From NCBI GenBank assembly GCA_041391665.1, contig JAWKNO010000003.1:407987-471986 (forward strand): a stretch of 64,000 bases of DNA. Direction: 5' to 3'. Source of the DNA: Bacteroidia bacterium (lineage in GTDB: Bacteria > Bacteroidota > Bacteroidia > J057). The stretch's first letter is position 1. Each line of letters starts with the position of its first letter. The notes under the pieces were generated by a model. The model was not told the origin of the DNA. It made no database searches and worked only from the letters and a program-made list of their open reading frames with translations. Positions 30,904 through 48,648 of the stretch are shown one piece after another. Made by a program: the position numbers and the translations under genes.

Positions 30904-32001
30904 CTATTCTCCAAAACTAATACCTGTACCTTTAGCAGTACTCACCATAAAGGAATCAGGGTTGACAAAATTATACGTGTTGATAGCTTCTGTAAGCGAG
31001 ACATCTATAATAGAATTGTTGCGGTAGGCAGCCATTCGACCAAACTTACCTTCCAATACCATTTCGAACGCTTTTACCCCAAACTGGGTGGCCAGTACCC
31101 GGTCAAAAGCGACAGGCGTGCCGCCACGCTGCACATGTCCCAAAACGGTAACTCTGCAATCCGCGGTCAGGCCGGCTCGCTGAAGTTCTTCGACAAGGCG
31201 ATATCCACACCCCCCCAAACGTACGTGTTTATAGCCGATTTCACCAGAATCAGAAGCAACTACACTACCGCCTTTGGGGTAAGCACCTTCGGCAATGACG
31301 ATATTTACAAATCCTCTTCTTGCATGGTAGCGCGACTTGATTCTTTCCACTACTCTATCAATATCATATGGAATTTCAGGTATCAGACAGATTTCGGCAC
31401 CCCCTGCAATTGCAGTATGGAGGGCAATCCATCCGGCATCGCGGCCCATTACCTCCATGACCATCACCCGGTTGTGACTTTCTGCCGTTGTAACCAGTTT
31501 ATCAAAACTCTCGGTCGCAACCTGCACAGCCGTTTGAAAACCAAAGGTATAATCGGTAGAAGACAGGTCGTTGTCAATGGTTTTGGGTACGCCTACGATA
31601 TTGAGGCCCTGTTCAAAGAGCTTTTGGGAAATCTTTTGAGAGCCATCACCGCCGATACTGATTACTGCATGAAAGCCCATTTCTTTCAACCTGGCAATCA
31701 TCCAGTCAGAGCGGTCCTCCGTAATCCAGGAGCCATCGGCTTGTTGTACCGGCCATTCGAAGGGCCCGGCCTTATTGGTCGTGCCGATAATTGTGCCGCC
31801 GCGAACGTGGATGCCAGCGACTGCATGTTCATCCAGACGAACAAGTTCCATGGGTTCGCGCATAAGTCCGGTATAGGCCTCTATGCTGCCATAGACTTCC
31901 CAATCATTTTCAAGCAAGGATCTTTTCACAATAGCACGAATGACGGCATTGAGCCCAGGGCAATCACCACCACCTGTTGCTACGAGGAGTTTTTTCTTCA
32001 T
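30904..32001 (-). CDS. pfkA: ATP-dependent 6-phosphofructokinase
   Basis: GGDCPGLNAVIR, IGGDGS (ATP-type), PKTIDND and MGRDAGWIAL motifs. Confidence 0.9.
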   Translation of the reverse strand: MKKKLLVATGGGDCPGLNAVIRAIVKRSLLENDWEVYGSIEAYTGLMREPMELVRLDEHAVAGIHVRGGTIIGTTNKAGPFEWPVQQADGSWITEDRSDWMIARLKEMGFHAVISIGGDGSQKISQKLFEQGLNIVGVPKTIDNDLSSTDYTFGFQTAVQVATESFDKLVTTAESHNRVMVMEVMGRDAGWIALHTAIAGGAEICLIPEIPYDIDRVVERIKSRYHARRGFVNIVIAEGAYPKGGSVVASDSGEIGYKHVRLGGCGYRLVEELQRAGLTADCRVTVLGHVQRGGTPVAFDRVLATQFGVKAFEMVLEGKFGRMAAYRNNSIIDVSLTEAINTYNFVNPDSFMVSTAKGTGISFGE

Positions 32002-32758
32002 GTATCAGCTGTTAAAATTCTGGTTGCAAGGTAAGACGATATTGCATGATTCCCCAAAAAAAGCATCAACACAGGAGGCCATTGGTCTCCATATATTTGC
32101 AAAAGAAAAAGTATGAAAGGCGTTCTCCCATTACATATCTTGCCAATGTGCCGGATGTTTGCTCCAAAATTATATTTTCATGTATTTTCCAGGGCAGAAT
32201 TGGCTGACAGAAAACCATTCCCGGAGAAAGTTTCTTTCAATATCCAATACATATAAGCAAAGAAAATGTTACTCTTTATCAGATTGTTCAGGATCGTATA
32301 TTTAATACGATATTTCATAATATATATATAAAATATGATCCATTCATAAATTAAAAGGCTGTTTAACATTCGTAAAAAATGATTTCGGGCACAAAATTGA
32401 TGATTGAAGATGATTTATTTTTTCAAACTGAAATATTTGTTCATGCTTGATCTTTTTTGCCTTAATCGAAATATTAAGCATAGTTGAGATCACGATCCGG
32501 GTTATACCAGACGAGCCAAATTTTCGTTTTCCATATGAAAGAAATTGCGACAATCGAAACAAATGAATTCACTGATTTTAAAGCATTTACAAACACTATT
32601 CGCATAAAGTCAAACATTCCCCGGTAAACCTTACAGTTTTTATCTTGCTGGTCTATGAGCCAATTTTTGATTGAATAAAAAAAATGGGTTATTTCATATT
32701 GTCGATCTTGCCAGACAAAAACAGAGTTACCCGTCCTCTATATCTAACACTAATTATC

Positions 32759-33613
32759 ATGATGAAGCGATTGAATCTTCTCACCTTGCTATTGATGGTA
32801 TGGGGTGCCCTTATGGCAGAAGAACGTACGTCCATTAATTTTTTTCAGGGAACTTTTGAACAATTAAAAGCTCAGGCAAGAGAAGAACACAAACCATTTT
32901 TTATCAGTTTCCACACTTCATGGAGCACTCCCTGCCAGAATATGGAGCTCTACACCTATACCAATCCAGATCTTATTGAGTATGTCAAAAATAACTATCT
33001 GGCATTTGAAGTAGATGCAGAATCTCCGGATCGGGGTAATAGCGACCTTGCGGAAGAATTTAACATCATCTTCTTTCCCACCATTATCATATTTAATGAT
33101 GAGGCCGAAGTTGTCAGCAAATTTTCTGGATTTAAAAATGCAGCCGACCTGAAAGCTCAACTGGTAGAGTTCCACCGGGTTTCAGACAAAGCTCATCTGG
33201 CGGAAAATACCCCTACTTCTGCCCCACCCAAAACTTCCACAACCGCAACTTCTTCAACGAGTCCTGCCAAAATCGTTGAAAAATCAGTTCCAACAACCAA
33301 AACCACCAAAGACCTGATTAATACAGAAGTCGGGCTTTTCCGCATCAGCCTGGAACAAGAAGATTCCAATGGTTATGGTGTACAAATTGGTGTTTTTGGG
33401 GACTATGCAAATGTGCTTCGGGAAGTATCTGCACTGGAAGTTCTCTACAAACAGCAGGTGATGGTAAACATCAGCAAACTGAGCGGCAATACGGTTTTTA
33501 AAGTGGTTGTCGGCCCATTTGACTCAGCAAGTCAGGCAGAAGGATTTCGGAAGTTGTTTCAGGAACGCGAAAAACGAACAGCGATGATTGTAAACCTCGA
33601 CGCTTATAAGTAG
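32759..33613 (+). CDS. exported thioredoxin-fold protein with C-terminal SPOR domain
   Basis: Signal MMKRLNLLTLLLMVWGALMA, a thioredoxin-like fold segment, a low-complexity T/S/P linker, and a SPOR-like end (GYGVQIGVFGDYANV...FKVVVGPFDSASQAE). Confidence 0.65.
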   Translation: MMKRLNLLTLLLMVWGALMAEERTSINFFQGTFEQLKAQAREEHKPFFISFHTSWSTPCQNMELYTYTNPDLIEYVKNNYLAFEVDAESPDRGNSDLAEEFNIIFFPTIIIFNDEAEVVSKFSGFKNAADLKAQLVEFHRVSDKAHLAENTPTSAPPKTSTTATSSTSPAKIVEKSVPTTKTTKDLINTEVGLFRISLEQEDSNGYGVQIGVFGDYANVLREVSALEVLYKQQVMVNISKLSGNTVFKVVVGPFDSASQAEGFRKLFQEREKRTAMIVNLDAYK

Positions 33614-33644
33614 AATTGATGTTTATTTTACCCTTGTAAGGCAT

Positions 33645-33679
33645 AAAATCCATCTCATGACCAGAGTTGGATTTTTTTT
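33645..33679 (+). terminator. intrinsic terminator
   Basis: Stem aaaatcca/tggatttt with a loop, then a T-run. Confidence 0.6.
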
Positions 33680-33726
33680 AAAGGAATACGAACCATTTTG
33701 GTAACAAATTGTATCTTTGAAAGTAT

Positions 33727-34044
33727 ATGAGGATAATAGCAGTTAGTACTCTTCGGAATTTCTGGCAAAATCATACCCATTCAGAAGAATCTTTAAAATC
33801 CTGGTATCAAGAAGCCATACATTCTGAATGGCAGAATTCTCATGAACTTAAATCTAAATACAAAAATGCTTCAATAATATCTTCGAAACGAGTAGTTTTT
33901 AATATAAAGGGAAACGATTACAGACTAGTTGTAGATATTGAGTACAGGCTAAAGATTATCTTTATCGTTTGGATTGGAACCCATAATGAATATGACAAAA
34001 TCAATGTTAAGACAATACAATATGGTAAAGCCCATAAAAAATAA
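33727..34044 (+). CDS. higB: type II toxin HigB (RelE-fold mRNA interferase)
   Basis: MRIIAVSTLRNFW...VVFNIKGNDYRLVVDIEY...WIGTHNEYDKI matches the HigB family pattern. Confidence 0.8.
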   Translation: MRIIAVSTLRNFWQNHTHSEESLKSWYQEAIHSEWQNSHELKSKYKNASIISSKRVVFNIKGNDYRLVVDIEYRLKIIFIVWIGTHNEYDKINVKTIQYGKAHKK

Positions 34045-34381
34045 TGAACAATACGAATTATACCTTGAGCTGGCATATAATCTTATGCAATTGGACTTAG
34101 AGGAAAATTCCAAGGAATCAGATGAGTTGGAAGTTCTGAGCATTATGATAGAACAGTATGAGAAAATACACTATCCTATTGACACCCCAGGGCCGATTGA
34201 AGCTATAAAGTTCCGGATGGATCAGCTAAACATGAAGAAATCAGAACTTGAAAAAGTGTTAGGGTACCGAAGCCGGATCAGTGACATATTCTCTGGAAGA
34301 AGAAAACTTAGCCTTGGAATGATTCGCAGGATCCATGAAAAGTTAGATGTTCCGGCAGAAATTCTTATAAAAGAATACTAA
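34022..34381 (+). CDS. higA: antitoxin HigA (XRE-type HTH)
   Basis: Start MVKPIKNNEQYE overlaps the higB end by 23 nt. C-terminal HTH LGYRSRISDIFSGRRKLSLGMIRRIH. Confidence 0.8.
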   Translation: MVKPIKNNEQYELYLELAYNLMQLDLEENSKESDELEVLSIMIEQYEKIHYPIDTPGPIEAIKFRMDQLNMKKSELEKVLGYRSRISDIFSGRRKLSLGMIRRIHEKLDVPAEILIKEY

Positions 34382-34389
34382 ACGTATTA

Positions 34390-34740
34390 TCATGCCGAAA
34401 ACGAAGTGCCACAGCCGCAACTCGATTTGGCGTTGGGGTTATTGAATATAAAACCCCGGTCATTGAGTCCATACTGATAATCGACTTCCATACCGGCAAG
34501 GTACAAAGCGTGTCTGCGGTCAAGCACTACAGCTATCCCATCAATATCGAGCAGATCGTCAAAATCCTGCTTTTCGTCAAAGTCCAGAATATAGCTCATA
34601 CCTGCACAACCGCCGCCTTTTACTCCCAGGCGAAGATATTTATTAGCAGGGATCTGCTCCTTCTCACGGATAGATTTCAACTCAGTTACCGCACTTTCCG
34701 TCAGCGTAATTACCGGAGATTGTACTTCTGTCATATCCAT
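34390..34740 (-). CDS. Fe-S cluster assembly A-type carrier (IscA/ErpA/HesB)
   Basis: GGGCAGMSY and a C-terminal CGCGTSF cysteine signature. The start is trimmed to the internal MDMTEV. Confidence 0.85.
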   Translation of the reverse strand: MDMTEVQSPVITLTESAVTELKSIREKEQIPANKYLRLGVKGGGCAGMSYILDFDEKQDFDDLLDIDGIAVVLDRRHALYLAGMEVDYQYGLNDRGFIFNNPNAKSSCGCGTSFSA

Positions 34741-34885
34741 ATTTCTGTCCTTATTTTGGAATAACTGCAAATTTACACTTTTTGTTTTATCCCTGAAAAT
34801 ATCATTTACAACTACAAACAAATACGCCAAAAGTGATGACAGGTTTCCCAAATTAGGTTAATTTTACAGCTCAAACCAGCGCTGT

Positions 34886-35527
34886 ATGCATGACGAAAAC
34901 CTATCCGGGCTTGTGAGCAAATATTTCCCCCAGCTTGCCAACCCCGACCTTTTGAAGGAAATTGCCGAAGTAGGGGTACTGAGAAGTTATGAGGCAGGAG
35001 AAGTCATCATGGACTACGGAAGTTACATCCGTATGGTGCCTCTGGTAATTGAAGGATATATTAAAGTCATGCGGGAAGGTGATGACGGGAATGAACTTTT
35101 CCTATACTACCTCAATGCCGGTGATGCCTGCTCGATGTCCTTTACCTGCTGTATGATGGAAAAACAAAGCGTGATCCGCACTACGGCCGAAGATCATTCC
35201 GTCATCATAGGCATTCCCGTCAAATACGCCGAAGAATGGCTCGCCCGCTACCAGATCTGGCGCAATTTCGTCATGCTTTCCTATGACAACCGCATGTTTG
35301 AACTGGTAAAAACCATCGACAATATCGCCTTTCGGAAAATGGACGAGCGCCTCCTCGACTATCTGCACAAAAAAGCCGGCGCAACCGGAAGCAATGAAGT
35401 TCAGGCTACCCACCAAGAAATCGCCAATGACCTCAACGCCTCCCGCGAAGCTGTTTCCCGCCTGCTCAAACAACTCGAAACTCTGGGGCAGGTTCAGCTG
35501 GGCAGAAACCGAATCATTTTAACCTGA
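34886..35527 (+). CDS. Crp/Fnr family transcriptional regulator
   Basis: cNMP-binding beta-roll and a C-terminal HTH HQEIANDLNASREAVSRLLKQLE. Confidence 0.85.
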   Translation: MHDENLSGLVSKYFPQLANPDLLKEIAEVGVLRSYEAGEVIMDYGSYIRMVPLVIEGYIKVMREGDDGNELFLYYLNAGDACSMSFTCCMMEKQSVIRTTAEDHSVIIGIPVKYAEEWLARYQIWRNFVMLSYDNRMFELVKTIDNIAFRKMDERLLDYLHKKAGATGSNEVQATHQEIANDLNASREAVSRLLKQLETLGQVQLGRNRIILT

Positions 35528-37959: not shown

Positions 37960-38121
37960 GGGGGGAGGCTTTAAAAACCATCGGCCACCATACTGACTTT
38001 TGGTCATAATTCAATTGAGGAAACAACCCCACGAACAACAATAAATAGCTTCGATCCGTTTACAGAAATGATTATCTTTACCTGGTCTAATTGTTGACTG
38101 TTGTAATATAAATAGGTGGAA

Positions 38122-39006
38122 ATGAGTGCGCTAAAAGAGAGGTATGTTAATCCGCTAACTGATTTTGGGTTCAAGAAATTATTTGGCACTGAACCCAATA
38201 AGAGTTTATTAATTGACTTTCTCAACCAAATATTGCCGGCACGACATCAGATTAAGGACCTTAGCTATGCAAATTCCGAACAATTGGGATCTCATGATCT
38301 GGATCGAAAAGCTATATTTGATTTGTATTGTTTAGGGGAATCGGGAGAGCGATTTATCGTAGAGATTCAGAAAGCGAAGCAGAATTTTTTTAAAGACCGT
38401 AGTATTTACTATTCATCCTTTCCGATTCAGGAACAGGCGAAGAAAGGCGATTGGGATTACCGCTTAGATCCGGTTTATACAGTAGGCATTCTTGATTTCA
38501 TTTTTGAGGATCATAAAAAGGAGGAAGAATTACTGCATATAGTAGAATTAAAGAACCAACGCTGTGAGGTTTTTTATGACAAATTGAAGTTTATCTATAT
38601 TGAATTACCCAAATTCACCAAGCAGGAGGATGAGTTATCCTCTCATTTTGATAAATGGCTATATGTATTCCGCCACTTAGCGAAGTTAAATAACAGGCCA
38701 AAAGCTTTGCAAGAAAAAGTCTTTGGAAAATTATTTGAAGCCGCTGAGATCGCCCGTTTTACGCCTGAAGAAAAAGAGGCGTATGAGGAAAGTTTGAAAT
38801 ATTATCGGGACTTAAAAAATGTAGTGGATACTTCTAAAGAAGAGGGCAAGATTGAGGGCAAGATCGAAGGCAAGATCGAAGGCAAGATTGAGGGCAAGAT
38901 CGAAGGCAAGATCGAAGTTGCTATAGAATTAAAAAGAAATAATGTAGCTATTGATATTATCATTAAGTCGACAGGGTTATCTAAAGAAGAAATTGAGAAT
39001 TTGTAG
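38122..39006 (+). CDS. Rpn-family PD-(D/E)XK nuclease / putative transposase
   Basis: YVNPLTDFGFKKLFG N-terminus and the D...EIQ core (FDLYC...RFIVEIQKAKQ). Has a C-terminal EGKI repeat. Confidence 0.8.
   Translation: MSALKERYVNPLTDFGFKKLFGTEPNKSLLIDFLNQILPARHQIKDLSYANSEQLGSHDLDRKAIFDLYCLGESGERFIVEIQKAKQNFFKDRSIYYSSFPIQEQAKKGDWDYRLDPVYTVGILDFIFEDHKKEEELLHIVELKNQRCEVFYDKLKFIYIELPKFTKQEDELSSHFDKWLYVFRHLAKLNNRPKALQEKVFGKLFEAAEIARFTPEEKEAYEESLKYYRDLKNVVDTSKEEGKIEGKIEGKIEGKIEGKIEGKIEVAIELKRNNVAIDIIIKSTGLSKEEIENL
38842..38913 (+). repeat. 12-bp tandem repeat x6 encoding (EGKI)6
   Basis: gagggcaagatt/gaaggcaagatc units read directly from the sequence. Confidence 0.9.
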
Positions 39007-39085: not shown

Positions 39086-39895
39086 TTAATTGATATCCCG
39101 AAAGTCAAAAGTGCTCACACTACTGATTTTCATCCGTGCTGGATTGGCAGTTGAAAAATAAGTAAACAGGCCCAGATCTTTTTCCGAAGAACTGAATTTT
39201 AGATTTTCCATCGGAATTTTTTCATTGGTTCCTTCATTCATATCAGAAAGACGCGTTTTGACCAGCAATCCCTTTCCGCCAATGGGGTCGCCACCTGAAG
39301 AAACACCAGAGAAAATATATTGGATAATTTCAGGTGAACGACTGTTTCCTACTTTACACACCCAATGGAGTTGTTTGTCCTGGTCAGAACGAAGCAGTAC
39401 AAACAAACACCCCTGCCTGATTTCAGGTACCCCTTCAAATTTCCTCACTTTTCCCCGCATTTCTACCACATAATGTTTTCCATTGTGGTGAATCTTCACA
39501 GGTGATTTTAGCAGGTCTGGCTGCCCTGAGTTACACATTACATAGCAGTAATACATTCCCTTAAGGCTTTCCAACTGGTCATCGGGCTTGGGTTTTTGAT
39601 TTTCCCTGCTGGCAAGCCAATCCTGAACGCCCTCATAACCAGCAAATCGAACCAATTTTTCCACATATTCAACATTGAGCCCATAAGTGGTTTCATCTGC
39701 CTTTAATGCCCGATTAATTCTAAGATGCAGGTACTCATAGAGGTAACGTTGAGATATTTCGGGTGTACCGGGGACTGTGTTTTCAATAACCTGACTGAGC
39801 AGGCCACATTTGGAATACGTGAGCGGGAGACTGACTTCCGCTTCTTCGGAAAGGGTAAACCTCAATTCAAGAATATCTTTCAAAGAAAACTGCAT
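39086..39895 (-). CDS. hypothetical protein
   Basis: 269-aa ORF with no recognisable motif. Lies in the accessory stretch. Confidence 0.5.
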   Translation of the reverse strand: MQFSLKDILELRFTLSEEAEVSLPLTYSKCGLLSQVIENTVPGTPEISQRYLYEYLHLRINRALKADETTYGLNVEYVEKLVRFAGYEGVQDWLASRENQKPKPDDQLESLKGMYYCYVMCNSGQPDLLKSPVKIHHNGKHYVVEMRGKVRKFEGVPEIRQGCLFVLLRSDQDKQLHWVCKVGNSRSPEIIQYIFSGVSSGGDPIGGKGLLVKTRLSDMNEGTNEKIPMENLKFSSSEKDLGLFTYFSTANPARMKISSVSTFDFRDIN

Positions 39896-40091
39896 AGATA
39901 AAGAAGTCGGAGAAAGTATAAATAATTATTTCTAATGAAAATAACGCAAAACTGTGTCAAAGTAATGAATATCTAAGTATGAACGGCCCCCTTTGTGAGC
40001 GAAGTTTGTAAGGTTCTTGTGTTGCGCATACACATTTGATTAGTGGTTACCGATCCCGGGCAGGTAGCCCATAACCCTAAATCATTAAATC

Positions 40092-40523
40092 ATGACTTAC
40101 AACTTTGCCACTACCTGGCCAGGGTCGGGTAATTATTTCCCCAATTTGGGACGGTATCTGATTTGTGCATGTATATGCCTTATGTTGTTTCCGGGTTCGG
40201 CCCGGGCGGATGGGGTAATCATTATTATTGAAGATTTGATTGGATATGCAAATAGTAGCGGACTAACAATTTGCGAAGGTAGTTCGTTTCCTGATGCGGG
40301 TTTTTCGCTTTCTCCCAACCCGGGGACGACTCAGGTAAGAGTGGCAGTGCCTTCTGTTGATAGTCTGGTATCGGTTAGCATTCTTAATTTGTCTGGAGAG
40401 ACATTATATGAGATCACCAGCTTCCAATCATCTACTACTGTAAGCCTTGAACCTGGTACTTATATTTTTCGGGTGATTTTGGAAGATGGTTGTGCTACGA
40501 GACTCTGGGTAATGCAGGCCTGA
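40092..40523 (+). CDS. small secreted protein consisting of signal peptide plus T9SS-like C-terminal sorting domain
   Basis: Signal ...CICLMLFPGSARA. CTD-like FSLSPNPGTTQVRV...ILNLSGETLYE...LEPGTYIFRV. Confidence 0.45.
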   Translation: MTYNFATTWPGSGNYFPNLGRYLICACICLMLFPGSARADGVIIIIEDLIGYANSSGLTICEGSSFPDAGFSLSPNPGTTQVRVAVPSVDSLVSVSILNLSGETLYEITSFQSSTTVSLEPGTYIFRVILEDGCATRLWVMQA

Positions 40524-40556
40524 TGTATGTTTAAGTGAAGACTTTGTGCCGCCCGG

Positions 40557-42035
40557 CTATGAATGTTGCAGGGCGGCTATTTTATTTTGTATTTCACCAA
40601 TCAGCCAGGAGTGGGCGTAAAAGGGTTTCTGCGTATTTGCCTTAATCAGCAACGCTTCAAGTTTTTTGACTCTGACCCCTAAGTTCACATCGCTCTCTGC
40701 TTCTGCCAGTTTTCGGAGAAGGTTATAAAATACCAGGTAGGCATGTCTGCGGCCCTCGCTGATATCTTTTTTTCGCTTCAGAGATCGAATATTTGCGTCA
40801 ACCTTGCTTTGGAAAAATTCAAACTCTTTATAGTTATGAACATCCGTAGTCAGGTATCTCGCTCTTATTTCAAGTGCTTTAGCAGCTACATCTATATTGG
40901 GGGAACGAAATTTTTTGTTGTGAAGAACTTTTTGGGCTTCCAGTGCGTTTCCCTGGGCTAAAAGGAGATCCGCCTGGCTGTAGTGAATCACATCTTCCGG
41001 TTGCTCCTTTTCCGGATCGAGAAACTTCGAAAAGTTTTCTATATGTTTTTCTGCTTCGTCATAAAGCCCCAATATGATACAGGTTTTCTGTAAATTTCTG
41101 TAATGGGAAGCGGGAAGCTTCTGGTCTATAAATAGCAGTTTCGTTTCTAATCCCCAAAGGTACAGTTGGTAGAGCATATTTAATTTCCCGTGACTTTCTT
41201 CCTGATTGAGATAGCGGATATAATGATTGGTAATCAGATTATAAAGGTTGGTCATGGGGATATGATGAATATGATTATATCCCTGCTTCAGTAAGGAGAT
41301 CAGTGCCTGCTGCCCGGTGTCATTGAGTTTTTCCCCGATGAGGAGGTAGGTCTGGTAAAGCAGTTTCAATAACAGGCTGCTATGATTTTCTTTTGAGAGA
41401 ACAAATCCGAGAAAAGTATCTGCCAGATCATCGGTTAATAATTCTCCGGAAACACGTTCATAGTTGATTTTCATCAGTATAAGCTGAAGTTTTTCCTCGG
41501 CTATCCATTGATTAAAGGAGTCGATAATATCCTGTTCGCTTTGGTTATCAGGAATAGCACCTCTTTTGACGAGCAATTGTTTTTTTAATTGGTAGATTTC
41601 ATAGAGGTATCCTTGAATGCGAACATGCGTTCCGACATCCTTTTTCAGTGCTTTTTCTACCTTTTTAAACTCTTTCAAAAAAAGATCGTGCAGGTTCCGA
41701 TCCAGTAGGGCCTTCAGATAAGCTACGGATAAAGCATATTTTTCAGGCTTCAGTTGGGAAATAGCGAGAAATGTGCTGAGTTTTTCCAGCATCAGATTGC
41801 GGATTTCCCGCACTTTATTATCGTTGTAGGGCTGGTTGGGGAAAAGATAGTGGAAGTGTTCACGGACATTACCTCCTTTTTCCAGAATCAGCTCCAGGTA
41901 AACAATGAGTTTATGGGGATTTTGTTTTTGGGCCAGGGTTTCGGAGGAATTTTCCCTAAGCTCATAAAAAAGCCAGAGGCGGAAATCTTCCCTCTCTGAG
42001 TCCGAAAGCGAATGGTACAATGTAAGAACCTTCAA
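40557..42035 (-). CDS. hypothetical all-alpha (TPR-like) protein
   Basis: 492-aa ORF that appears helical throughout. No catalytic motif. Confidence 0.55.
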   Translation of the reverse strand: MKVLTLYHSLSDSEREDFRLWLFYELRENSSETLAQKQNPHKLIVYLELILEKGGNVREHFHYLFPNQPYNDNKVREIRNLMLEKLSTFLAISQLKPEKYALSVAYLKALLDRNLHDLFLKEFKKVEKALKKDVGTHVRIQGYLYEIYQLKKQLLVKRGAIPDNQSEQDIIDSFNQWIAEEKLQLILMKINYERVSGELLTDDLADTFLGFVLSKENHSSLLLKLLYQTYLLIGEKLNDTGQQALISLLKQGYNHIHHIPMTNLYNLITNHYIRYLNQEESHGKLNMLYQLYLWGLETKLLFIDQKLPASHYRNLQKTCIILGLYDEAEKHIENFSKFLDPEKEQPEDVIHYSQADLLLAQGNALEAQKVLHNKKFRSPNIDVAAKALEIRARYLTTDVHNYKEFEFFQSKVDANIRSLKRKKDISEGRRHAYLVFYNLLRKLAEAESDVNLGVRVKKLEALLIKANTQKPFYAHSWLIGEIQNKIAALQHS

Positions 42036-42377
42036 AACAATTGTGCTTTAATTTTTATCAGCAGACAATTTTGCAGGCAGATCAACAATTCAAATGTTTT
42101 ATGCACTCAAAATAGCGCTTTATGCCTCAATTTCCAAGATAATGGAGATTTTCGGGGGAGAAATTTTTCCAACAATTACAAAAATGTGGTGCTAAATGCA
42201 TGTTGATTTATTGCGATTTTGTCTTGAGAGAAAAAAGAAGATAGAGAGTAATCATATACCATGCTGTGGCCGGTTCTCGGACAGGGATGGAAGTGGACCG
42301 GCCTGGTGTGGTGAGTGGCGCACCCGAATTAATGCCACAAAACCGTCAATAAGACAAAATGCCAAAATTAAACACCT

Positions 42378-42479
42378 ATGAATATTAAAAGTCTTGTCGC
42401 CATAGTTGTGTTGGGTTTTTCCATACTAGGCTGGTCGGCCTGGTTAATATTTGCTCTGATAGCTCTTAGTGGATATTGA
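42378..42479 (+). CDS. possible 33-aa hydrophobic peptide (MNIKSLVAIVVLGFSILGWSAWLIFALIALSGY)
   Basis: Hand-translated ATG...TGA ORF below the ORF-track cut-off, with a single predicted TM helix. It could be a chance ORF. Confidence 0.2.
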   Translation: MNIKSLVAIVVLGFSILGWSAWLIFALIALSGY

Positions 42480-42572
42480 ATCTATTAAAAGGATAGTATT
42501 TATTTTTCTTCGCATTGAAAAAAGTATTAATGGGAAAACAGAGATTGGTTATTCTACCTATGCAAGCGTCAA

Positions 42573-42580
42573 TAAATTTG
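42573..42580 (+). promoter_or_regulatory. candidate -7 box TAAATTTG upstream of the four-gene operon
   Basis: Matches TAnnTTTG about 113 nt upstream of the ATG at 42693. Motif match only. Confidence 0.3.
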
Positions 42581-42692
42581 CAATAAAATCAAAATAGAAA
42601 AGTCCCAAGCATGAGCTACGCGCGCCATAAATTCGCCCACTGCTCGTCATGGTGTGCAGCTCGGGTGTTGGGCCACATAAAAAAAGAAAACA

Positions 42693-42881
42693 ATGGAAAA
42701 AGTCAAAAAACCGAAAAAGAAAGTGCCAAAAATTGTCAACGGCAATTACAATTGTATGTCTTGCACATGTAGTGACTTTAATGAAAGTTTGACAAGTAAT
42801 GTTTGTACATGTGGGCATTCATTTTATGACCATAGATTTTATCAAAATCAAAGTGAAGAAAAAAATAAAATTCAATTATAA
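42693..42881 (+). CDS. 62-aa lysine-rich protein with SWIM-like zinc finger (operon gene 1)
   Basis: C21-x2-C24-x-C26-x11-C38-x-C40-x-H42-x4-H47. The C-x-C-x13-C-x-H subset fits the SWIM signature, and CTCSDF...CTCGH resembles CxCPxF...CKH. Confidence 0.55.
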   Translation: MEKVKKPKKKVPKIVNGNYNCMSCTCSDFNESLTSNVCTCGHSFYDHRFYQNQSEEKNKIQL

Positions 42882-42886
42882 TTATT

Positions 42887-42991
42887 ATGAATGATGACTT
42901 AGATAGCATGAATGGTGATTTAGCTAACATGAATAGTGATTTAGTTAGCATGAATGGTGATTTTGTTGGCATGAATGACAACTTAGTTGAC
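42887..42991 (+). repeat. 21-bp tandem repeat x5
   Basis: Reads atgaatgatgacttagatagc / atgaatggtgatttagctaac / atgaatagtgatttagttagc / atgaatggtgattttgttggc / atgaatgacaacttagttgac. Confidence 0.9.
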
Positions 42992-43969
42992 ATGTTGATT
43001 ACTAGGCTTGTTTCAAATGAACAGGTTAGAAGAGGACAACTGATAAACCAGCAAGCCCAATGGGAATTTGAGCAATACATGGAGTATTGGAGGTTTCTTA
43101 CCCAAGATGAACTTAGACAAAGGGAATATGAAAGAAGAATCACAGAACACATCCTTAGAAATCAATTGCAAAAAGATTTACAAACCGAATTAGATATCAA
43201 AAGATTAAGATTTCAGAAATATGGGTCCTCATACTCATCTACAGAATGGCTCAAGGCACAAGGATACAGCAGAAGTAGCCGACATTTGTTTGTTGTCTTT
43301 AGTGTTCATTTTAATGATTCGACCATACCTAATCCAATGTATTTCTTGAAAGATAGGTTAAAAGAGCAGAACAAAGACTTTGAACAGAAAAAATCACTAT
43401 TAATTCTTGATACGGCTGAAGGGTTTGGTACGAGCTCTGAAGCTGCAATGTTTTATAATAGAGAATTTATTTTTAAACCCGCTATTATTGTTTACGGACT
43501 TCTCTCTGGAAACTACCTCAGATTTTATGCAACGTTTGGCGGTGTTCTTGAAAATCAGGTCAAAATAGAATACGTTAATGATGATGATATTCAAATAAGT
43601 ATAGAACCTGAAAATATTACCTTAGGAGAAATTCCGATAAGCATAATAGAGAAGATATCCTCAGCTTCAAACGAGTTGCAAAAGGGGAAAGAAAAAACCG
43701 ACAGTGTTGTTGACTACGTCATTAACTCTCAACTCCAGTTACTAATTGATTATGCATTAATTTGGATTACCAATAAAGAAAACAAAATTTGGGATAATGT
43801 AAGGAGCAAGAAAAAAAATCGAATAAAAGAAATATCAGATGAAGTGCCAGAACTTGGAGAAAAATTAAAAGAATTTGACGAATTAATAAATCGTCGAAGC
43901 ATTGAAATTGAAAAAATAAGTCGCTCTCGTACATACAAGGATGACAAAAACAGTAATCCTTTCTTATAA
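42887..43969 (+). CDS. hypothetical protein with N-terminal heptad repeats and coiled-coil segments (operon gene 2)
   Basis: Starts 5 nt after gene 1. Has an (MNxDLxx)5 N-terminus and charged helical stretches at both ends. Confidence 0.65.
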   Translation: MNDDLDSMNGDLANMNSDLVSMNGDFVGMNDNLVDMLITRLVSNEQVRRGQLINQQAQWEFEQYMEYWRFLTQDELRQREYERRITEHILRNQLQKDLQTELDIKRLRFQKYGSSYSSTEWLKAQGYSRSSRHLFVVFSVHFNDSTIPNPMYFLKDRLKEQNKDFEQKKSLLILDTAEGFGTSSEAAMFYNREFIFKPAIIVYGLLSGNYLRFYATFGGVLENQVKIEYVNDDDIQISIEPENITLGEIPISIIEKISSASNELQKGKEKTDSVVDYVINSQLQLLIDYALIWITNKENKIWDNVRSKKKNRIKEISDEVPELGEKLKEFDELINRRSIEIEKISRSRTYKDDKNSNPFL

Positions 43970-43989
43970 ACTCAAGAAAAACAAAATCA

Positions 43990-45030
43990 ATGAATTCATT
44001 TAAAATAACAATACTTGGTGCTCAAAACTCTGGAAAAACTTGTTACATGTATGCGATGTATAAAATAATGAGTGAAGGCAGAGACGGATTCACTTTTACA
44101 GCATGTCAGCCATATTCATTAGAACTGGATAAAGATGCTCATAATGAGCTACTTAAAGGATGGCAAATAATTTCTCAAAAAAAAGAATGGGTGCCAGGTA
44201 CAATTGGCTCGGGCAAGAACTATAATTTTTCATTTAATTATGCTGGGAAAAGTTTAATTAGTTTTGAGTACTTAGATTACAGAGGATCTGCCTTAAAAGA
44301 CGGAAAAGATTCAAAAGATTACCAAACTTTGTTATCAAATCTTTCTAATTCGCAAGTAATAATGTGGTGTGTTCCAGGTCAGTATTGGAAAGACCAGGAT
44401 GAGGACGAATACTCTAATATTGATTTGGAAATTTCAAATATCAATGCACTTCTTGCAGATTTAAAAAGTAAGAGAGACAAAGATAAGAAGCCTGTTCCTC
44501 CCGTAATTCTTCTTATTACAAAATATGACCAATGCAAGAATGTACCAAGTGATAATCTGCAAAGATTAATAAAGTCAAAACTGAACATCTTATTTACCAA
44601 AGAAGGGGATTGGCTTGTTACTATTATGAAATCTACTCTCGGTTTTGATTTGTCGGAATTTGATAATGATTTAGAAAAAGCCACAATTAAGCCAAAATGG
44701 ATTATGGAACCAATAGCCTTTGCCATTTACTTTGTATTTGAACAACTGAAAAAAGCGTTTTCTGAAGATATTAGTTATCATAGTAGGGAGGCAGATCGTT
44801 ACAAAGGCAGTTTTCTTGGCATAAAAGATTGGTGGTTTTCAGAAGAAATAGAACACCATGAATTAAGAGAGAAAAAAGCATCAGATGAAATTGATTTCAT
44901 CAAAAAATACGCACCCCTTGTAAAAGAAACTTTTTTCCCCAAAGATTCTGCGTATTTCTACTTCAAAGGCAAAAAATTAAAATTAGAACAATTGGAGTCT
45001 TTAATTTCTGGCAATAAAACAGATATGTGA
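43990..45030 (+). CDS. orphan P-loop GTPase-like NTPase (operon gene 3)
   Basis: G1 G10AQNSGKT17, G3 D96YRG99 and G4 T177KYD180 preceded by a hydrophobic strand VILLI. Candidate switch-I Thr in WVPGT71. Confidence 0.7.
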   Translation: MNSFKITILGAQNSGKTCYMYAMYKIMSEGRDGFTFTACQPYSLELDKDAHNELLKGWQIISQKKEWVPGTIGSGKNYNFSFNYAGKSLISFEYLDYRGSALKDGKDSKDYQTLLSNLSNSQVIMWCVPGQYWKDQDEDEYSNIDLEISNINALLADLKSKRDKDKKPVPPVILLITKYDQCKNVPSDNLQRLIKSKLNILFTKEGDWLVTIMKSTLGFDLSEFDNDLEKATIKPKWIMEPIAFAIYFVFEQLKKAFSEDISYHSREADRYKGSFLGIKDWWFSEEIEHHELREKKASDEIDFIKKYAPLVKETFFPKDSAYFYFKGKKLKLEQLESLISGNKTDM

Positions 45031-45058
45031 AAAATTTGTTAATCTAAAAAATATAACA

Positions 45059-46105
45059 ATGTCGCAGCCCAAAAAAATTAACGCAGCTCCATTCGTGTTG
45101 AGTAGAACAAACTCAATCGATTATAGAATTTTATCAATGCCAAATTCATTGAAGTCAACCGCCAATGATATCAGGCAATTAATTGAAATAAATTTTTTAA
45201 GCTCTCCAAACAGCCTTTACGATGAAGAGACTCAATTTCGTTGGACTATTTTTCAATTCAATAAAGTTTTATTTATTGGGTTAGTTGGACTTGCTCATAA
45301 TATCTCAGATGTTAACAACCGGTGTAACGAGGGGACAAGACCCTTCTATGTTTATTTGGGGTATGTTATCGAGAATGTGTCAAATGAAAGCGTAATCGAA
45401 TATTTTCCATTTTCTGTTGACACATTCAGGAATTTATACTTGTATATTAATTCGAAGTGGGACGAAGTAGTTGAATCAGAACCTTATTCGTCAGAAACCA
45501 TAATTTTAGAATCTAAACCAATTAGTACCATTGAACAAATAAAAATTAGGATTGAAGAAGACTGGACTCTCATATATCCCGACAGTAAAATGGAGGCTAT
45601 TTGGCAAAATATATTGAGTAATCCCCCTGAAAATAATTTTATTGTATGTTTGGGAATGGCTACGGAAGAGGATGCGCTTCAATCTACTATGGCTACGAAA
45701 GAGGATGTGCTTCAATCTACTATAAATATTGCTACTATTCCCGCGAAAAACTATCATTACGAAGAAATACCATATGCCTTTAAAAAAATAAAAAAAGAAG
45801 AACTGCCAGAAGAAGCTAAACCTATTATTGAGGAGAAATTAGATAAATTTCCAGAAAAAAGAGTGTTTGAAAAAGCAAAAGAAAAGACTGTAGCTTTTTT
45901 AGGTTTCGGAACTGTAATAACTCTCGCTGGTGCTATATTGAAATCAGTTTACATAGTTGTCATCGGAGGCTCAATTATAGTAATAGGAGGTTCTTTAACT
46001 GCAATAGATAACTTCCTAAAAAAAGATAAAGAAGAAGAAAAACACCGCCCCAAAAAGCGCCCAAATCATAAAGATAAGCCTCCTCCTCCTGATTTAGGTG
46101 AATAG
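45059..46105 (+). CDS. membrane-anchored protein with C-terminal Gly-rich TM hairpin and basic Pro-rich tail (operon gene 4)
   Basis: VAFLGFGTVITLAGAIL-KS-VYIVVIGGSIIVIGGSLTAI followed by KKDKEEEKHRPKKRPNHKDKPPPP. The ~270-aa N-terminal soluble region has no recognised fold. Confidence 0.65.
   Translation: MSQPKKINAAPFVLSRTNSIDYRILSMPNSLKSTANDIRQLIEINFLSSPNSLYDEETQFRWTIFQFNKVLFIGLVGLAHNISDVNNRCNEGTRPFYVYLGYVIENVSNESVIEYFPFSVDTFRNLYLYINSKWDEVVESEPYSSETIILESKPISTIEQIKIRIEEDWTLIYPDSKMEAIWQNILSNPPENNFIVCLGMATEEDALQSTMATKEDVLQSTINIATIPAKNYHYEEIPYAFKKIKKEELPEEAKPIIEEKLDKFPEKRVFEKAKEKTVAFLGFGTVITLAGAILKSVYIVVIGGSIIVIGGSLTAIDNFLKKDKEEEKHRPKKRPNHKDKPPPPDLGE
45656..45721 (+). repeat. 33-bp tandem duplication (MATEEDALQST / MATKEDVLQST)
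   Basis: Two adjacent 33-nt copies with three mismatches, read directly. Confidence 0.9.
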
Positions 46106-46115
46106 CAAATAGGAC

Positions 46116-46314
46116 GCAATTCAAATTGTCGCGGTGAACGGAAAGGTTCCTCCTCCTTAGGTCGTCGAGTCTGAAAGGACTCCTTCGGAGATGACGGTTT
46201 GTCATGAGAAAAACCGCTTCTCCGGCCGGAGAAGAGCGTTTCTGGTAGGATGCCACCTCACCCTGACGACCAACGGAAGGAAGGGTCTATTGCTTTTGCG
46301 ACAATTTGGTTTGC
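46116..46314. other. GC-rich structured element bounded by 17-nt imperfect inverted repeats (candidate ncRNA or MITE)
   Basis: gcaattcaaattgtcgc (46116-46132) against gcgacaatttggtttgc (46298-46314), with an 11-bp perfect core. Internal hairpins are gtcgtc/gatgac (46161-46195) and the perfect palindrome cttctccggccggagaag (46217-46234). Confidence 0.4.
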
Positions 46315-46389
46315 TCCCAATTATACCTTAACATGAAATTCTCCAAAGAGTTCAGGTCATTTCGGAGAACAGGAAAATGCCTTTCATGT

Positions 46390-46569: not shown

Positions 46570-46653
46570 TACTCATACCTGTAACCGTTATAAGCAACAA
46601 ATAAAACCATGCCTCTTGTTGAGGAGAGTATAAATGAAATCAAATTTATCCTA

Positions 46654-48648
46654 ATGAAACAGTTTACACCAAGCTTCATACGAGCACTCTTACTATTAAC
46701 GCTAACTGCCCTGCTATGCCGACACTCTGCTCAGGCACAAAACTGGAGCGAAATCATCAAAGTCACCGCTTCCGACCGGGAAAGTGAGGATCGGTTCGGC
46801 TACTCGGTAGCCATCTCCGGGGACTACGCCATAGTAGGGGCTTATGAAGAAGATGAAGACGCCTTGGGCGGGAACACCCTTGACGGTGCCGGTTCGGCCT
46901 ACCTCTTTCACAACCAGGCCGGAACCTGGACCCAGGTGCAAAAGATTGTCGCCTCCGATCGGGATGCTGGGGATCGGTTCGGCTACTCGGTAGCTATCTC
47001 CGGTGACTATGCTGTGGTAGGGGCTTATAATGAAGATGAAGACGCCTTGGGCGGGAATTCCCAAACCAGTGCCGGTTCGGCCTATATCTTTCACAACCAG
47101 GCCGGTACCTGGACCCAGATGCAAAAGATTGTCGCCCCCGACCGAAAGGCTTTTGATTGGTTCGGCTACTCGGTAGCCATCTCGGGGGACTATGCCGTGG
47201 TGGGGGCTCAAAGAGAAGGTGATGACATCTTGAGTGGTAGTGCTATACTCAGTTCCGGTTCGGCCTACATCTTCTATAACCAGGCCGGAACCTGGACCCA
47301 GGTGCAAAAAATTGTCGCATCCGATCGGGCACCTTCAGATTTCTTCGGCTACTCGGTAGCCATCTCCGGGGACTATGTTGTGGTAGGGGCTGATAGCGAA
47401 GATGAAGATGCTTCTGGCGGGAATACCCTTGACCGTGCCGGTTCGGCATACCTCTTTTACAACCAGGCCGGGACCTGGACCCAGGTGCAAAAGATTGTCG
47501 CCTCCGATCGGGAAACTACAGATTTTTTCGGATCCTCGGTAGCCATCTCCGGGGACTATGTCTTGGTAGGGGCTTATAACGAAGATCAAGATGCCTTGGG
47601 CGGGAACACCCTTGACGGTGCCGGTTCGGCCTACCTCTTTCACAACCAGGCCGGAACCTGGACCCAGGTGCAAAAGATTGTCGCCTCCGATCGGGATGCT
47701 TTTGATTCTTTCGGATCCTCGGTAGCCATCTCCGGAGACTATGCCCTGGTAGGGGCTCCCCGGAAAGATGAATACACCTCGGGCGGGAATTCTCTCCCCA
47801 GTGCTGGATCAGCCTACATCTTTCACAACCAGGTCGGGATATGGACCCAGGTGCAAAAGATTAATGCCTCCGACCTAAACACTGAGGATCGGTTCGGCAT
47901 CTCAGTAGCTATCTCCGGGGACTATGCCTTGGTGGGAGCTCATCGGGAAGATGAAGACGCCTCGGGCGGGAATTCCTTATCCAATTCCGGTTCGGCTTAT
48001 TTTTGGGGGAAGTCCTGTACCAATACTGCCGGAACAGACCTCCAAACTGCTTGCGACAGCTACACCTGGATTGATGGTAATACCTATACGGCATCCAATA
48101 ACACAGCTACACATACACTAATCAATGCCGCAGGATGCGACAGTCTGGTAACGTTAGATTTGACAATAAACACAATAGATGTAAATGTAACCGACAGTAG
48201 CCCTACTCTGACAGCCAATGCTTTGGGAGCTACTTATCAGTGGCTGGATTGCGACAACGGCTATGCTGCTATTGCAGGAGCAACTAACCAATCCTTCCTC
48301 GCTACGGCTGATGGGAATTACGCTGTGGCGGTAACAGCCAATAATTGTACAGATACTTCGGCTTGTTACTCAGTAGTAATCACGGGCATTGTCGAAAATG
48401 GAAATACTGCTTTTGCCTCAGTTTATCCGAATCCAACCTCAGGCATACTAACCATTGACCTTGGCAACACGCCTCTCACGGGAGGCATCACCATAGAGTT
48501 GACCGATATGCTTGGCAGGGTGGTTATCCGAGATCAGGTATCTGTGCCTCATATTGAGGTGGACTTACGTAAGGAGGAAAATGGGGTGTATGTCATTCGC
48601 ATTATAACTGAAGCAGGCGCACATGCCTTACGCGTGATTAAGCAGTAA
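46654..48648 (+). CDS. seven-bladed FG-GAP (integrin-alpha-like) repeat protein with T9SS C-terminal sorting domain
   Basis: Signal MKQFTPSFIRALLLLTLTALLC. Seven copies of FG(Y/S)SVAISGDYAxVGA...GSAY(L/I)F.NQAGTWTQVQKI. CTD is ASVYPNPTSGILTIDL...GVYVIRI. Confidence 0.8.
   Translation: MKQFTPSFIRALLLLTLTALLCRHSAQAQNWSEIIKVTASDRESEDRFGYSVAISGDYAIVGAYEEDEDALGGNTLDGAGSAYLFHNQAGTWTQVQKIVASDRDAGDRFGYSVAISGDYAVVGAYNEDEDALGGNSQTSAGSAYIFHNQAGTWTQMQKIVAPDRKAFDWFGYSVAISGDYAVVGAQREGDDILSGSAILSSGSAYIFYNQAGTWTQVQKIVASDRAPSDFFGYSVAISGDYVVVGADSEDEDASGGNTLDRAGSAYLFYNQAGTWTQVQKIVASDRETTDFFGSSVAISGDYVLVGAYNEDQDALGGNTLDGAGSAYLFHNQAGTWTQVQKIVASDRDAFDSFGSSVAISGDYALVGAPRKDEYTSGGNSLPSAGSAYIFHNQVGIWTQVQKINASDLNTEDRFGISVAISGDYALVGAHREDEDASGGNSLSNSGSAYFWGKSCTNTAGTDLQTACDSYTWIDGNTYTASNNTATHTLINAAGCDSLVTLDLTINTIDVNVTDSSPTLTANALGATYQWLDCDNGYAAIAGATNQSFLATADGNYAVAVTANNCTDTSACYSVVITGIVENGNTAFASVYPNPTSGILTIDLGNTPLTGGITIELTDMLGRVVIRDQVSVPHIEVDLRKEENGVYVIRIITEAGAHALRVIKQ
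46744..48005 (+). repeat. intragenic tandem repeats, period ~183 nt, x7
   Basis: One 108-nt stretch is identical at 46861-46968 and 47593-47700 by hand comparison. Confidence 0.85.

Follow-up and report, generated by a model that had tools for sequence, protein, structure and literature searches.

A DO-GTPase superfamily protein and its co-inherited, probably membrane-anchored partner in a low-GC cassette of a Bacteroidia genome: a candidate conflict-system switch

The 64,000-nt stretch of contig JAWKNO010000003.1 analysed here (assembly GCA_041391665.1, positions 407,987 to 471,986 of the forward strand; hereafter the window) comes from a Bacteroidia bacterium and encodes a 346-aa P-loop GTPase with an ATG start at 43990..45030. 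The GTPase gene lies between two genes of the same, forward strand, an upstream gene for a 360-aa protein (U, 42887..43969), which ends 20 nt before the GTPase start, and a downstream gene for a 348-aa partner protein (P, 45059..46105), which begins after a gap of 28 nt; the three genes occupy about 3.2 kb within a low-GC island. Our results showed that the GTPase belongs to a clade of the DO-GTPase superfamily, called B-type here, whose members are inherited as a unit with P. Judging from genomic context, we consider it fairly probable that the cassette is a membrane-proximal, GTP-gated switch of a conflict system with a membrane partner other than GAP1.

The sequence of the GTPase contained the motifs ILGAQNSGKT (residues 8-17), LDYRGS (residues 95-100) and LLITKYD (residues 174-180), in the order reported by the first-pass annotation and exactly in the open reading frame (ORF) at 43990-45030, an agreement far beyond chance. 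The G1 (P-loop) motif GAQNSGKT covered residues 10-17 (44017..44040), the G3 (Walker B) motif DYRG occupied residues 96-99 (44275..44286) at the end of the β3 strand, and the G4 guanine-specificity motif TKYD at residues 177-180 (44518..44529) followed directly after β5. Conservation was counted in an alignment of 154 family representatives, of which 147 could be counted in the G1 columns. The Walker A signature GxxxxGK[ST] was near-invariant (G10 in 142, G15 in 146, K16 in 143 and T17 in 141 of the 147), the Walker B signature hhhhDxxG, present as FEYLDYRG, kept D96 in 148/154 and G99 in 149/154, and the [NT]KxD signature kept T177 in 148, K178 in 150 and D180 in all 154 sequences. DYRG and TKYD, on whose conservation among homologues the first-pass annotation had made its reading depend, were thus conserved, and Y97, L217, G218 and P241 were near-invariant as well. 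The consensus of the switch-I region was R-W-P-P-P-T, with T71 as the candidate G2 threonine (T, S or N in 145/154; its exact register is uncertain, the alignment shifting by 1-2 residues there). The Walker B consensus of the B-type clade was D-Y-[RP]-G-G, and no Gln followed DxxG in the window protein.

Relatives of the GTPase were numerous. Among 1.84 billion cluster representatives, an exhaustive profile search detected 353 clusters at E<=1e-30, a number that rose to 1892 at E<=1e-3, and most of the matched clusters aligned over the full length, including the C-terminal part. A word-indexed search for shared 5-residue words in 5.8 billion proteins returned four relatives besides the GTPase itself. 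The nearest relative (P0051) was 41% identical and the next one 33%. The public entry for the window GTPase is a hypothetical protein of a Bacteroidia metagenome-assembled genome that is already annotated with PF19993.

Analysis of an AlphaFold2 (AF2) model built from a 72-sequence multiple sequence alignment (MSA) showed a TRAFAC G-domain of Ras-like fold and, C-terminal to it, a helical hairpin, with a mean predicted local distance difference test (pLDDT) score of 94.7 and a predicted template modelling score of 0.91. The model began with β1, the P-loop and α1, followed by an insertion in the switch-I region (residues ~30-75, 44077..44214) that contained a strand (34-39) and a helix (48-62) and ended at the candidate G2 residue T71. 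Strands 76-84 and 87-96, joined by a 2-residue turn, formed an antiparallel β2-β3 hairpin leading to D96; such an antiparallel strand beside the Walker B strand, preceded by a conserved Thr/Ser in switch I, is a hallmark of the TRAFAC class of P-loop GTPases (Leipe et al. 2002). The model continued with α2 (109-119), β4 (123-129), a lengthened α3 (143-164), β5 (172-177) and TKYD, and then with a helix and β6, which was followed by x-T-L-G. The C-terminal extension (residues 240-346, 44707..45027), modelled mostly with pLDDT >90, consisted of a helical hairpin (240-271/284-315), a small β-hairpin (322-330) and a last helix (332-340). The tail of about 130 residues that had been noticed on the first pass (219-346, ~128 aa) was therefore real, and it was a conserved family feature, common also to the A-type paralogues described below. 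The charged insert of about 75 residues that had been placed between G3 and G4 turned out to be the ordinary α2-β4-α3-β5 segment, ~20 residues longer than in Ras, and the true insertion lay between G1 and β2. Together, the conserved motifs and the model showed that the window protein is an intact TRAFAC P-loop GTPase with a long helical C-terminal extension, of predicted activity and predicted guanine specificity.

Foldseek comparison of the model with the PDB, a check that the first-pass annotation had proposed, matched the G-domains of Arl2, Rab32, Ras, G-alpha, EngB and Sar1 with target-normalised template modelling (TM) scores of ~0.5-0.65, as well as mitofusin, Fzo1 and Sey1 over ~370-390 aligned columns with TM scores of only 0.25-0.3. 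All E-values were ~1e-5 to 1e-4, and no close structural relative was present among these matches. A structure search of BFVD returned only giant-virus Ras, Ran and dynamin-like folds. The sequence-profile search found no significant PDB homologue, the best match being heterotrimeric G-alpha (E 0.012, residues 5-83), which likewise carries an insertion between G1 and switch I. The insertion of the window GTPase comprised ~45 residues compared with the ~120-residue helical domain of G-alpha, the window GTPase lacked both the Gln after DxxG and the arginine of RxxT, and the match was not significant.

The Pfam family DO-GTPase2 (PF19993) matched residues 6-196 of the GTPase with E 1.1e-6 and 29.0 bits against a gathering threshold of 27. 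Membership in the DO-GTPase superfamily was sound because 60 of the 72 B-type clade members matched PF19993 at E<=1e-3 (best 2.9e-13), and 27 of the 72 matched PF19975; the A-type GTPases of neighbouring genes matched both families strongly, and one B-type member weakly matched Septin. The NCBIfam scan gave only a 14-bit P-loop match to TIGR00231 small_GTP (cut-off 42.5), and the PADLOC and PHROGs scans of the GTPase gave nothing meaningful. The first-pass annotation was right to keep the protein outside the standard housekeeping families, since neither NCBIfam nor Pfam returned a confident housekeeping match and Pfam gave DO-GTPase2 instead. Its description as an orphan does not hold, because the GTPase belongs to a named Pfam family and its gene is part of a conserved cassette that also encodes a co-evolving partner and, within the sub-clade, a third conserved protein. 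The link to conflict-system GTPases that the first-pass annotation suggested found a concrete family in PF19993, whereas the defence role itself is read from context.

PF19993 and PF19975 (DO-GTPase1) were both defined by Kaur, Burroughs, Iyer & Aravind in 2020 (PMC7159879). The "double-GTPases" of that study are TRAFAC proteins in which a glutamate of the Walker B motif is conserved; they often occur as two paralogues, often carry N-terminal zinc ribbons and always pair with GAP1 (N, M and C domains) and with GASH or FNIII proteins and variable effectors, and their predicted role is that of GTP-dependent switches in conflict systems (PMC7159879). Of the described systems, 38% have two adjacent paralogous GTPases, a feature that is typical, not obligatory; zinc ribbons occur in 60% of the members and transmembrane segments in 13% (PMC7159879). 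The position of the glutamate is not specified in that paper; in our alignment Glu was found at the Walker B Asp position in 4/154 sequences and after the Gly in 10/154, and the window GTPase has D96 and S100. No N-terminal zinc ribbon was present on the window GTPase, whose P-loop begins at residue 10 and therefore leaves no space for one.

The partner P was homologous to unannotated 370-430-aa genes flanking related GTPases (all-against-all BLAST, E 1e-7 to 1e-10). The family showed a conserved N-terminal domain of ~250 residues, a variable linker and usually a hydrophobic C-terminal segment, and its near-invariant residues R16, T17, D21, P28, R61, G74, R94, G101 and W134 were all kept in the window protein, in which the N-terminal domain (~1-250) is followed by a predicted membrane hairpin and a Lys/Pro-rich tail. 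The hydrophobic stretch of residues 278-316 (45890..46006), found by hydropathy calculation, was split by K295 and Lys-rich on both flanks, so that by the positive-inside rule it is probably a two-helix membrane hairpin with both ends in the cytoplasm. By the same hydropathy measure, 37 of the 51 loci encoded at least one membrane-anchored P. Two P genes were present in 16 loci, and 12 of these combined one anchored with one soluble copy. A 33-nt direct duplication in the P gene (45656-45721, 94% identical), which encodes MATEEDALQST/MATKEDVLQST, lay within the variable linker, which joins the conserved domain to the predicted membrane hairpin.

Pfam models gave only scattered noise and nothing meaningful among the 53 P-family members at E<=0.1, the P profile matched nothing in the PDB, and the word-indexed protein search with P returned only itself. 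GAP1 in particular was not detected by Pfam (E<=0.1) in P or its 52 relatives, a search made without a positive control or profile-profile comparison, so that very remote homology is possible. An AF2 model of P from a 5-sequence MSA reached a pLDDT of only 37.9 and showed an N-terminal β-β-α-β-β-β-α order, and Foldseek searches with this model gave non-significant matches (best E 4e-3) to SEA/GATOR1 Npr, TagF, Mon1-Ccz1, TRAPP, MglB, LAMTOR, LC7 and PAS domains. The order of elements and the enrichment of these weak matches for longin and roadblock folds hint that P may be a longin/roadblock-type GTPase regulator, which is a lead and not a result. Like MglA-MglB, Rag-Ragulator and Rab with Mon1-Ccz1 or TRAPP, the cassette would combine a Ras-like switch with a dedicated co-evolving regulator. 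Unlike the regulators of those systems, P had no significant sequence or structure match to longin/roadblock proteins, the best E of 4e-3 coming from the low-confidence model. MglA/MglB moreover is encoded on the chromosome, acts in polarity and has no membrane anchor, and the resemblance to such systems is a lead only.

Related loci were collected from contigs of relatives and from a scan of one genome per species, which gave 54 additional loci. Layouts were counted in the 47 evaluable loci, for which 1 kb or more of sequence was available on each side, and P was called adjacent when it lay within 400 nt of a B-type GTPase. P adjoined the B-type GTPase in 43 of these 47 loci, and an A-type GTPase paralogue, often upstream of the B-type gene, was found in 21 of them (A-type versus B-type in hhalign: probability 99.9%, E 5e-35). 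Fourteen loci had B-P alone, the commonest layout; A-B-P came next with 7 loci and P-A-B-P with 6. Pairwise distances among the GTPases and among the adjacent P proteins were strongly correlated (Mantel r = 0.90), a value reached by 0 of 2000 permutations. The B-type GTPase and P are thus inherited as a unit. Six-frame hidden Markov model (HMM) searches of the 64 kb found neither a second GTPase nor a second P, so the window represents the recurrent single-GTPase form, with a GTPase and P and without the A-type paralogue.

In the one-genome-per-species scan the B-type clade was patchy across phyla and concentrated in cyanobacteria. Three cyanobacterial plasmids carry the module, and the copy on Geminocystis pGM01 has genes for an anti-phage dCTP deaminase, a dGTPase, HigB/HigA, an AAA ATPase and a recombinase on its flanks; in the window and in L063, transposase-type genes lie beside the U-GTPase-P cassette. 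A phage origin of the cassette was considered and rejected, since no relatives occurred in IMG/VR contigs, phage genomes or PHROGs. A five-gene operon variant was seen in 13-15 rumen and gut loci of Firmicutes and Bacteroidota (L032 and L035-L053, e.g. L036 5411-7076), in which B-P was followed in constant order by three small proteins of ~128, ~151 and ~220-275 aa that had no Pfam matches.

Longer members of the B-type clade carried N-terminal fusions to CHAT/caspase (four cases), SIR2_2, TIR_2, HSP70 and TPR domains. HSP70-like genes recurred as neighbours in 8 loci and tandem dynamin-like genes in 6; Ser/Thr kinases, a C39-like peptidase and several unassigned families were further recurrent neighbours. 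From the flanks of 47 loci, 149 ORFs were chosen at random and scanned with PADLOC; dynamins matched LeoA five times and LeoBC three times, both components of Eleos, and the same scan returned MADS components, a type IIG restriction-modification protein, MzaA, DrmD, Csx1, a PLD-helicase and PDC-S10. Eleos dynamins protect Bacillus from jumbo phages in a P-loop-dependent manner (10.1101/2022.05.11.491447). A paper on Juk and jumbo phages, which mentions Ras-like GTPase fusions, proved to be unrelated.

Three kinds of composite loci were observed among these relatives. In six of them (L004, L011, L015, L018, L025 and L027, e.g. L025 3814-12007) an HSP70-like gene, P, an A-type GTPase, a B-type GTPase, a further P and a C39-like peptidase gene occurred with tandem LeoA/LeoBC-like dynamins, and these large loci may represent an Eleos-type system enlarged by accessory GTPase genes. 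In Planktothrix (L001 1462-3654) and Floridaenema (L009 1446-3713) a fusion of a CHAT protease with a B-type GTPase lay upstream of an A-P-A-B-P array, with interleaved genes for zinc ribbon-kinase and kinase-TPR proteins and three to four GTPase copies. In five Selenomonadaceae loci, domains like the Glc-type EIIA of the phosphotransferase system (PTS) were fused in frame to the N-terminus of the B-type GTPase through a linker of 25-35 residues (L053 6729-9107, L041 192-2042, L047 695-2200, L037 7536-9032 and L052 7482-8789); the L053 fusion contained two EIIA domains and an EIIB motif, and the L037 and L052 copies lacked both conserved catalytic histidines. The EIIA domain is an unexpected sensor or adaptor for a conflict-type GTPase.

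The resemblance to Eleos (formerly "Dynamins", LeoA/LeoBC) lies in GTPase-based membrane defence, in the linkage of Eleos-type pairs to A-B-P in 6 related loci, and in the G-domain and helical hairpin of the window GTPase, which are loosely reminiscent of the dynamin superfamily. In contrast to Eleos, the window cassette contained no dynamin genes (no Dynamin_N and no PADLOC match to LeoA/LeoBC), its GTPase is much smaller, and its G-domain was as near to Ras, Arf and Rab (TM ~0.6) as to dynamin, with a TM score of 0.25-0.3 to mitofusin.

With the DO-GTPase systems of Kaur et al. the cassette and its relatives share the GTPase superfamily of TRAFAC type, two adjacent paralogues in many loci of the clade, an adjacent co-evolving non-GTPase partner, membrane-proximal components and, in the relatives, variable effectors that are common to other conflict systems (TIR, caspase-like, HSP70, kinases), the functions being all predicted. 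They differ from them in a partner that is not detectably GAP1, in the lack of a GASH, GAAD or FNIII component (no Pfam match to GASH or FNIII was found for U, for a 492-aa upstream ORF or for other neighbours), in a B-type GTPase without zinc ribbon, in the single GTPase of the window instead of two, and in the extra gene U, which is not known elsewhere. Members of the B-type clade abound in cyanobacteria, a phylum from which the described systems are said to be "nearly completely absent" (PMC7159879).

Gene U is the first conserved gene of the cassette, and its product was predicted to be helical towards both termini, with an α/β region in the centre. The closest relative of the GTPase, P0051, is encoded on a Bacteroidota contig (L063) that kept the gene order U-GTPase-P, with a U homologue at the same position (27% identity over 214 aa, E 2e-12) and a P homologue of 30% identity (E 7e-33). 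Profile searches found no U counterpart in the other 60 loci, two metagenome scans yielded no further U-GTPase-P cassettes, and U matched no family in Pfam, NCBIfam, PADLOC, PHROG or the PDB. Within a rare sub-clade, U is by sequence a third conserved component. Its reading as a degenerate A-type GTPase or as a second P paralogue was rejected at hhalign probabilities of 0.1-0.8%, and a match of the P-profile HMM to U (E 0.037) was due to low-complexity similarity of the Lys-rich tail. At the annotated N-terminus of U, a repeat search identified about five copies of a 21-nt tandem repeat (42887..42994, 75-85% matches) encoding heptads MNxDLxx; the L063 orthologue lacks it, so the repeat either forms a variable extension of the N-terminus or precedes the true start codon. 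Five nt upstream of U, a Cys/His-rich ORF of 62 aa (42693..42881, forward strand), whose membership in the cassette is uncertain, encodes a Lys-rich segment followed by C-x2-C-x-C-x11-C-x-C-x-H-x4-H. It had no homologue in any related locus and no family match, and its pattern suggests that it may be a small zinc-binding protein.

The cassette lies in an island (42000..46100) of 33-36% GC compared with ~46% in the rest of the window, as seen in the composition profile. No tRNA, Rfam family or flanking direct repeats were found at the island ends. The orthologous L063 cassette was also of low GC (31-36%), with a DDE transposase gene immediately upstream. U-GTPase-P is thus a low-GC cassette that was probably acquired horizontally. 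Sigma-70-like promoter sites were no commoner than in shuffled sequence, and no bipartite Bacteroidetes-type TTTG...TAnnTTTG element was found near the cassette.

In the mechanism that we propose, the hairpin of P would hold the GTPase at the cytoplasmic side of the membrane, and P would probably regulate the nucleotide cycle of the GTPase. GTP binding would turn the GTPase-P complex on and hydrolysis would reset it. Dimerisation, possibly through the G-domain or the helical stalk, is likely to matter because A/B pairs are frequent and no catalytic Gln follows DxxG. In the relatives, the output would be a fused CHAT protease, TIR, SIR2 or HSP70 domain or a linked Eleos-type dynamin pair. Since the window has no recognisable enzymatic effector, U and/or P itself would be the output there, for instance, as speculation, through membrane perturbation leading to abortive infection. 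A wider claim can be built on this mechanism, namely that the B-type GTPase and P, with or without the A-type paralogue and U, form a third, hitherto undescribed class of GTPase-centred immune modules beside GAP1-N1 and GAP1-N2, in which a membrane-anchored longin/roadblock-like regulator of a Ras-like switch would gate suicide effectors (CHAT, TIR, SIR2) or Eleos-type dynamins upon infection; such a module would be the prokaryotic counterpart of a small GTPase on a longin/roadblock platform, as in Rag-Ragulator or with a Rab guanine nucleotide exchange factor. Taken as a whole, this joint claim is tentative, and we hold it to be rather unlikely.

Several observations weigh against the conflict-system reading itself. 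None of the DO-GTPase superfamily members has been tested experimentally in the literature searched, and one DO-GTPase has been noted there in Psp membrane-stress operons. The PF19993 match of the window GTPase passed its threshold only marginally, no PADLOC model matched U, the GTPase or P, and both U and P lack a known fold, the P model being of low confidence as described above. No recognisable effector domain was found in the window cassette. Position 66 in switch I is Glu in the window GTPase and Arg in 123/154 relatives; without this family-typical Arg its hydrolysis mechanism may differ. The defence genes identified by PADLOC around related loci were scanned without a background control and are suggestive. 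The PTS-EIIA fusions point to metabolic or membrane signalling, and clusters of dynamins with DnaK in cyanobacteria have been discussed as membrane-remodelling machinery (PMC5827413).

The last two of these points lead to a different view, in which the cassette is a module of membrane dynamics or envelope stress that acts with or like dynamins and HSP70, or that signals metabolic or membrane state. The predicted membrane anchor of P agrees with it, as do the Foldseek matches to mitofusin, Fzo1 and Sey1, which also combine a G-domain with a helical bundle, and the occurrence of the module with dynamin-like pairs and HSP70-like genes in cyanobacteria and in one Saprospiraceae genome. We regard this explanation as possible but unlikely, because the distribution is patchy as in horizontal gene transfer and the cassette sits in a low-GC island, the fused CHAT, TIR and SIR2 domains are typical suicide or immune effectors that are hard to square with housekeeping, and the linked dynamins match Eleos, for which anti-phage activity is experimental (10.1101/2022.05.11.491447). 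The two views are not fully exclusive, since DynA is known to defend by membrane protection (cited in 10.1101/2022.05.11.491447). It is quite improbable that the cassette is an ordinary DO-GTPase-GAP1 system, with P as a highly divergent GAP1 and U as a divergent GASH-like helical component. Bacteroidetes do have GAP1-N1 systems, with an all-helical GASH protein among the components (PMC7159879), and P is downstream, membrane-anchored by prediction and co-evolving with the GTPase, as such a system would have it; yet none of the 53 P members matched Pfam meaningfully at E<=0.1 (a search made without a positive control for GAP1 or profile-profile comparison), nor did U, P has one globular domain of ~250 aa and not three, the clade is concentrated in the very phylum where GAP1 systems are reported to be nearly absent, and the sub-clade has one GTPase without zinc ribbon where GAP1-N1 systems have a pair, of which one carries a zinc ribbon.

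Decay was also considered, with the cassette as the non-functional remnant of a two-GTPase system that lost its A-type paralogue and effectors. The A-type GTPase present in 21/47 loci is indeed missing, the 64 kb hold no second GTPase or P, and the window GTPase departs from the consensus at R66E, P68V, C213M, P214K, V215S, N237W and H239M. However, the three ORFs are intact, all nucleotide-binding residues are kept, P retains every near-invariant residue of its family, and the single-GTPase B-P form is the commonest layout. The maintenance of the U-GTPase-P arrangement at 27-41% identity in L063 indicates purifying selection and likewise counts against a remnant, which we consider very improbable. 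A housekeeping GTPase, such as a translation factor, an Era/Obg/Eng-type ribosome assembly factor or a cell-division or septin-like protein, has next to no probability and is effectively refuted already. EngB was among the many TRAFAC matches of Foldseek and one clade member weakly resembled Septin, but neither NCBIfam nor Pfam matched the GTPase to Era, Obg, EngA/B, translation factors or FtsY/Ffh, word-sharing relatives were few in 5.8 billion proteins, and the gene lies in a low-GC island and belongs to a patchily distributed clade with members on plasmids. The conflict-system switch remains the reading that we favour.

Further features were observed around the cassette. Right after the P stop codon (46108-46322), inverted-repeat arms of 25 nt (80% complementary), 165 nt apart, enclose a near-perfect palindrome (46210-46241); this element is GC-rich, unlike the cassette, and has no Rfam match. 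Just downstream of the island (46609-48648), a 679-aa FG-GAP-repeat protein carries a C-terminal sorting domain of the type IX secretion system (Por_Secre_tail), which confirms a Bacteroidota host. Upstream, in a separate low-GC patch, a gene of the PDDEXK_2 family (PD-(D/E)XK, Rpn/YhgA-like transposase family; 38116-39006, Pfam E 1e-76) ends in a C-terminal (EGKI)n repeat, and L063 also carries a PDDEXK_2 gene besides its DDE transposase gene. Between the transposase-like gene and the cassette (39086-42035) lie three unannotated genes encoding proteins of 269 aa (reverse strand), 143 aa (forward strand, weak Por_Secre_tail match) and 492 aa (reverse strand), the last of which is helical with a non-significant match to Abi_2 (E 0.02); the three may belong to the same variable region. 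Another low-GC patch (32000-35000, 34-41% GC) contains a HigA/antitoxin-like ORF of 135 aa (33974-34381), which suggests further accessory or mobile material upstream.

The GTPase family itself is already known through PF19993, and the P family, the B-P core, the U-B-P variant, the abundance in cyanobacteria and the linkage to Eleos appear to be undescribed in the literature searched. DO-GTPases are a large predicted "thresholding switch" family of bacterial conflict systems, and the window cassette, with three small genes in ~3.2 kb and one GTPase, offers a tractable entry to the wiring of Ras-like switches in prokaryotic defence. In this module a new partner family, absent from Pfam, PADLOC and the PDB and usually membrane-anchored, takes the place of GAP1; the superfamily is extended to filamentous cyanobacteria, and the module is physically linked to Eleos-type dynamins and HSP70-like proteins. 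Current understanding is not overturned by these results, which fill in and slightly redraw a known predicted picture and would not surprise specialists in conflict systems. If it is true that P is a longin/roadblock-type regulator, the module would be relevant to how the regulation of small GTPases arose in eukaryotes.

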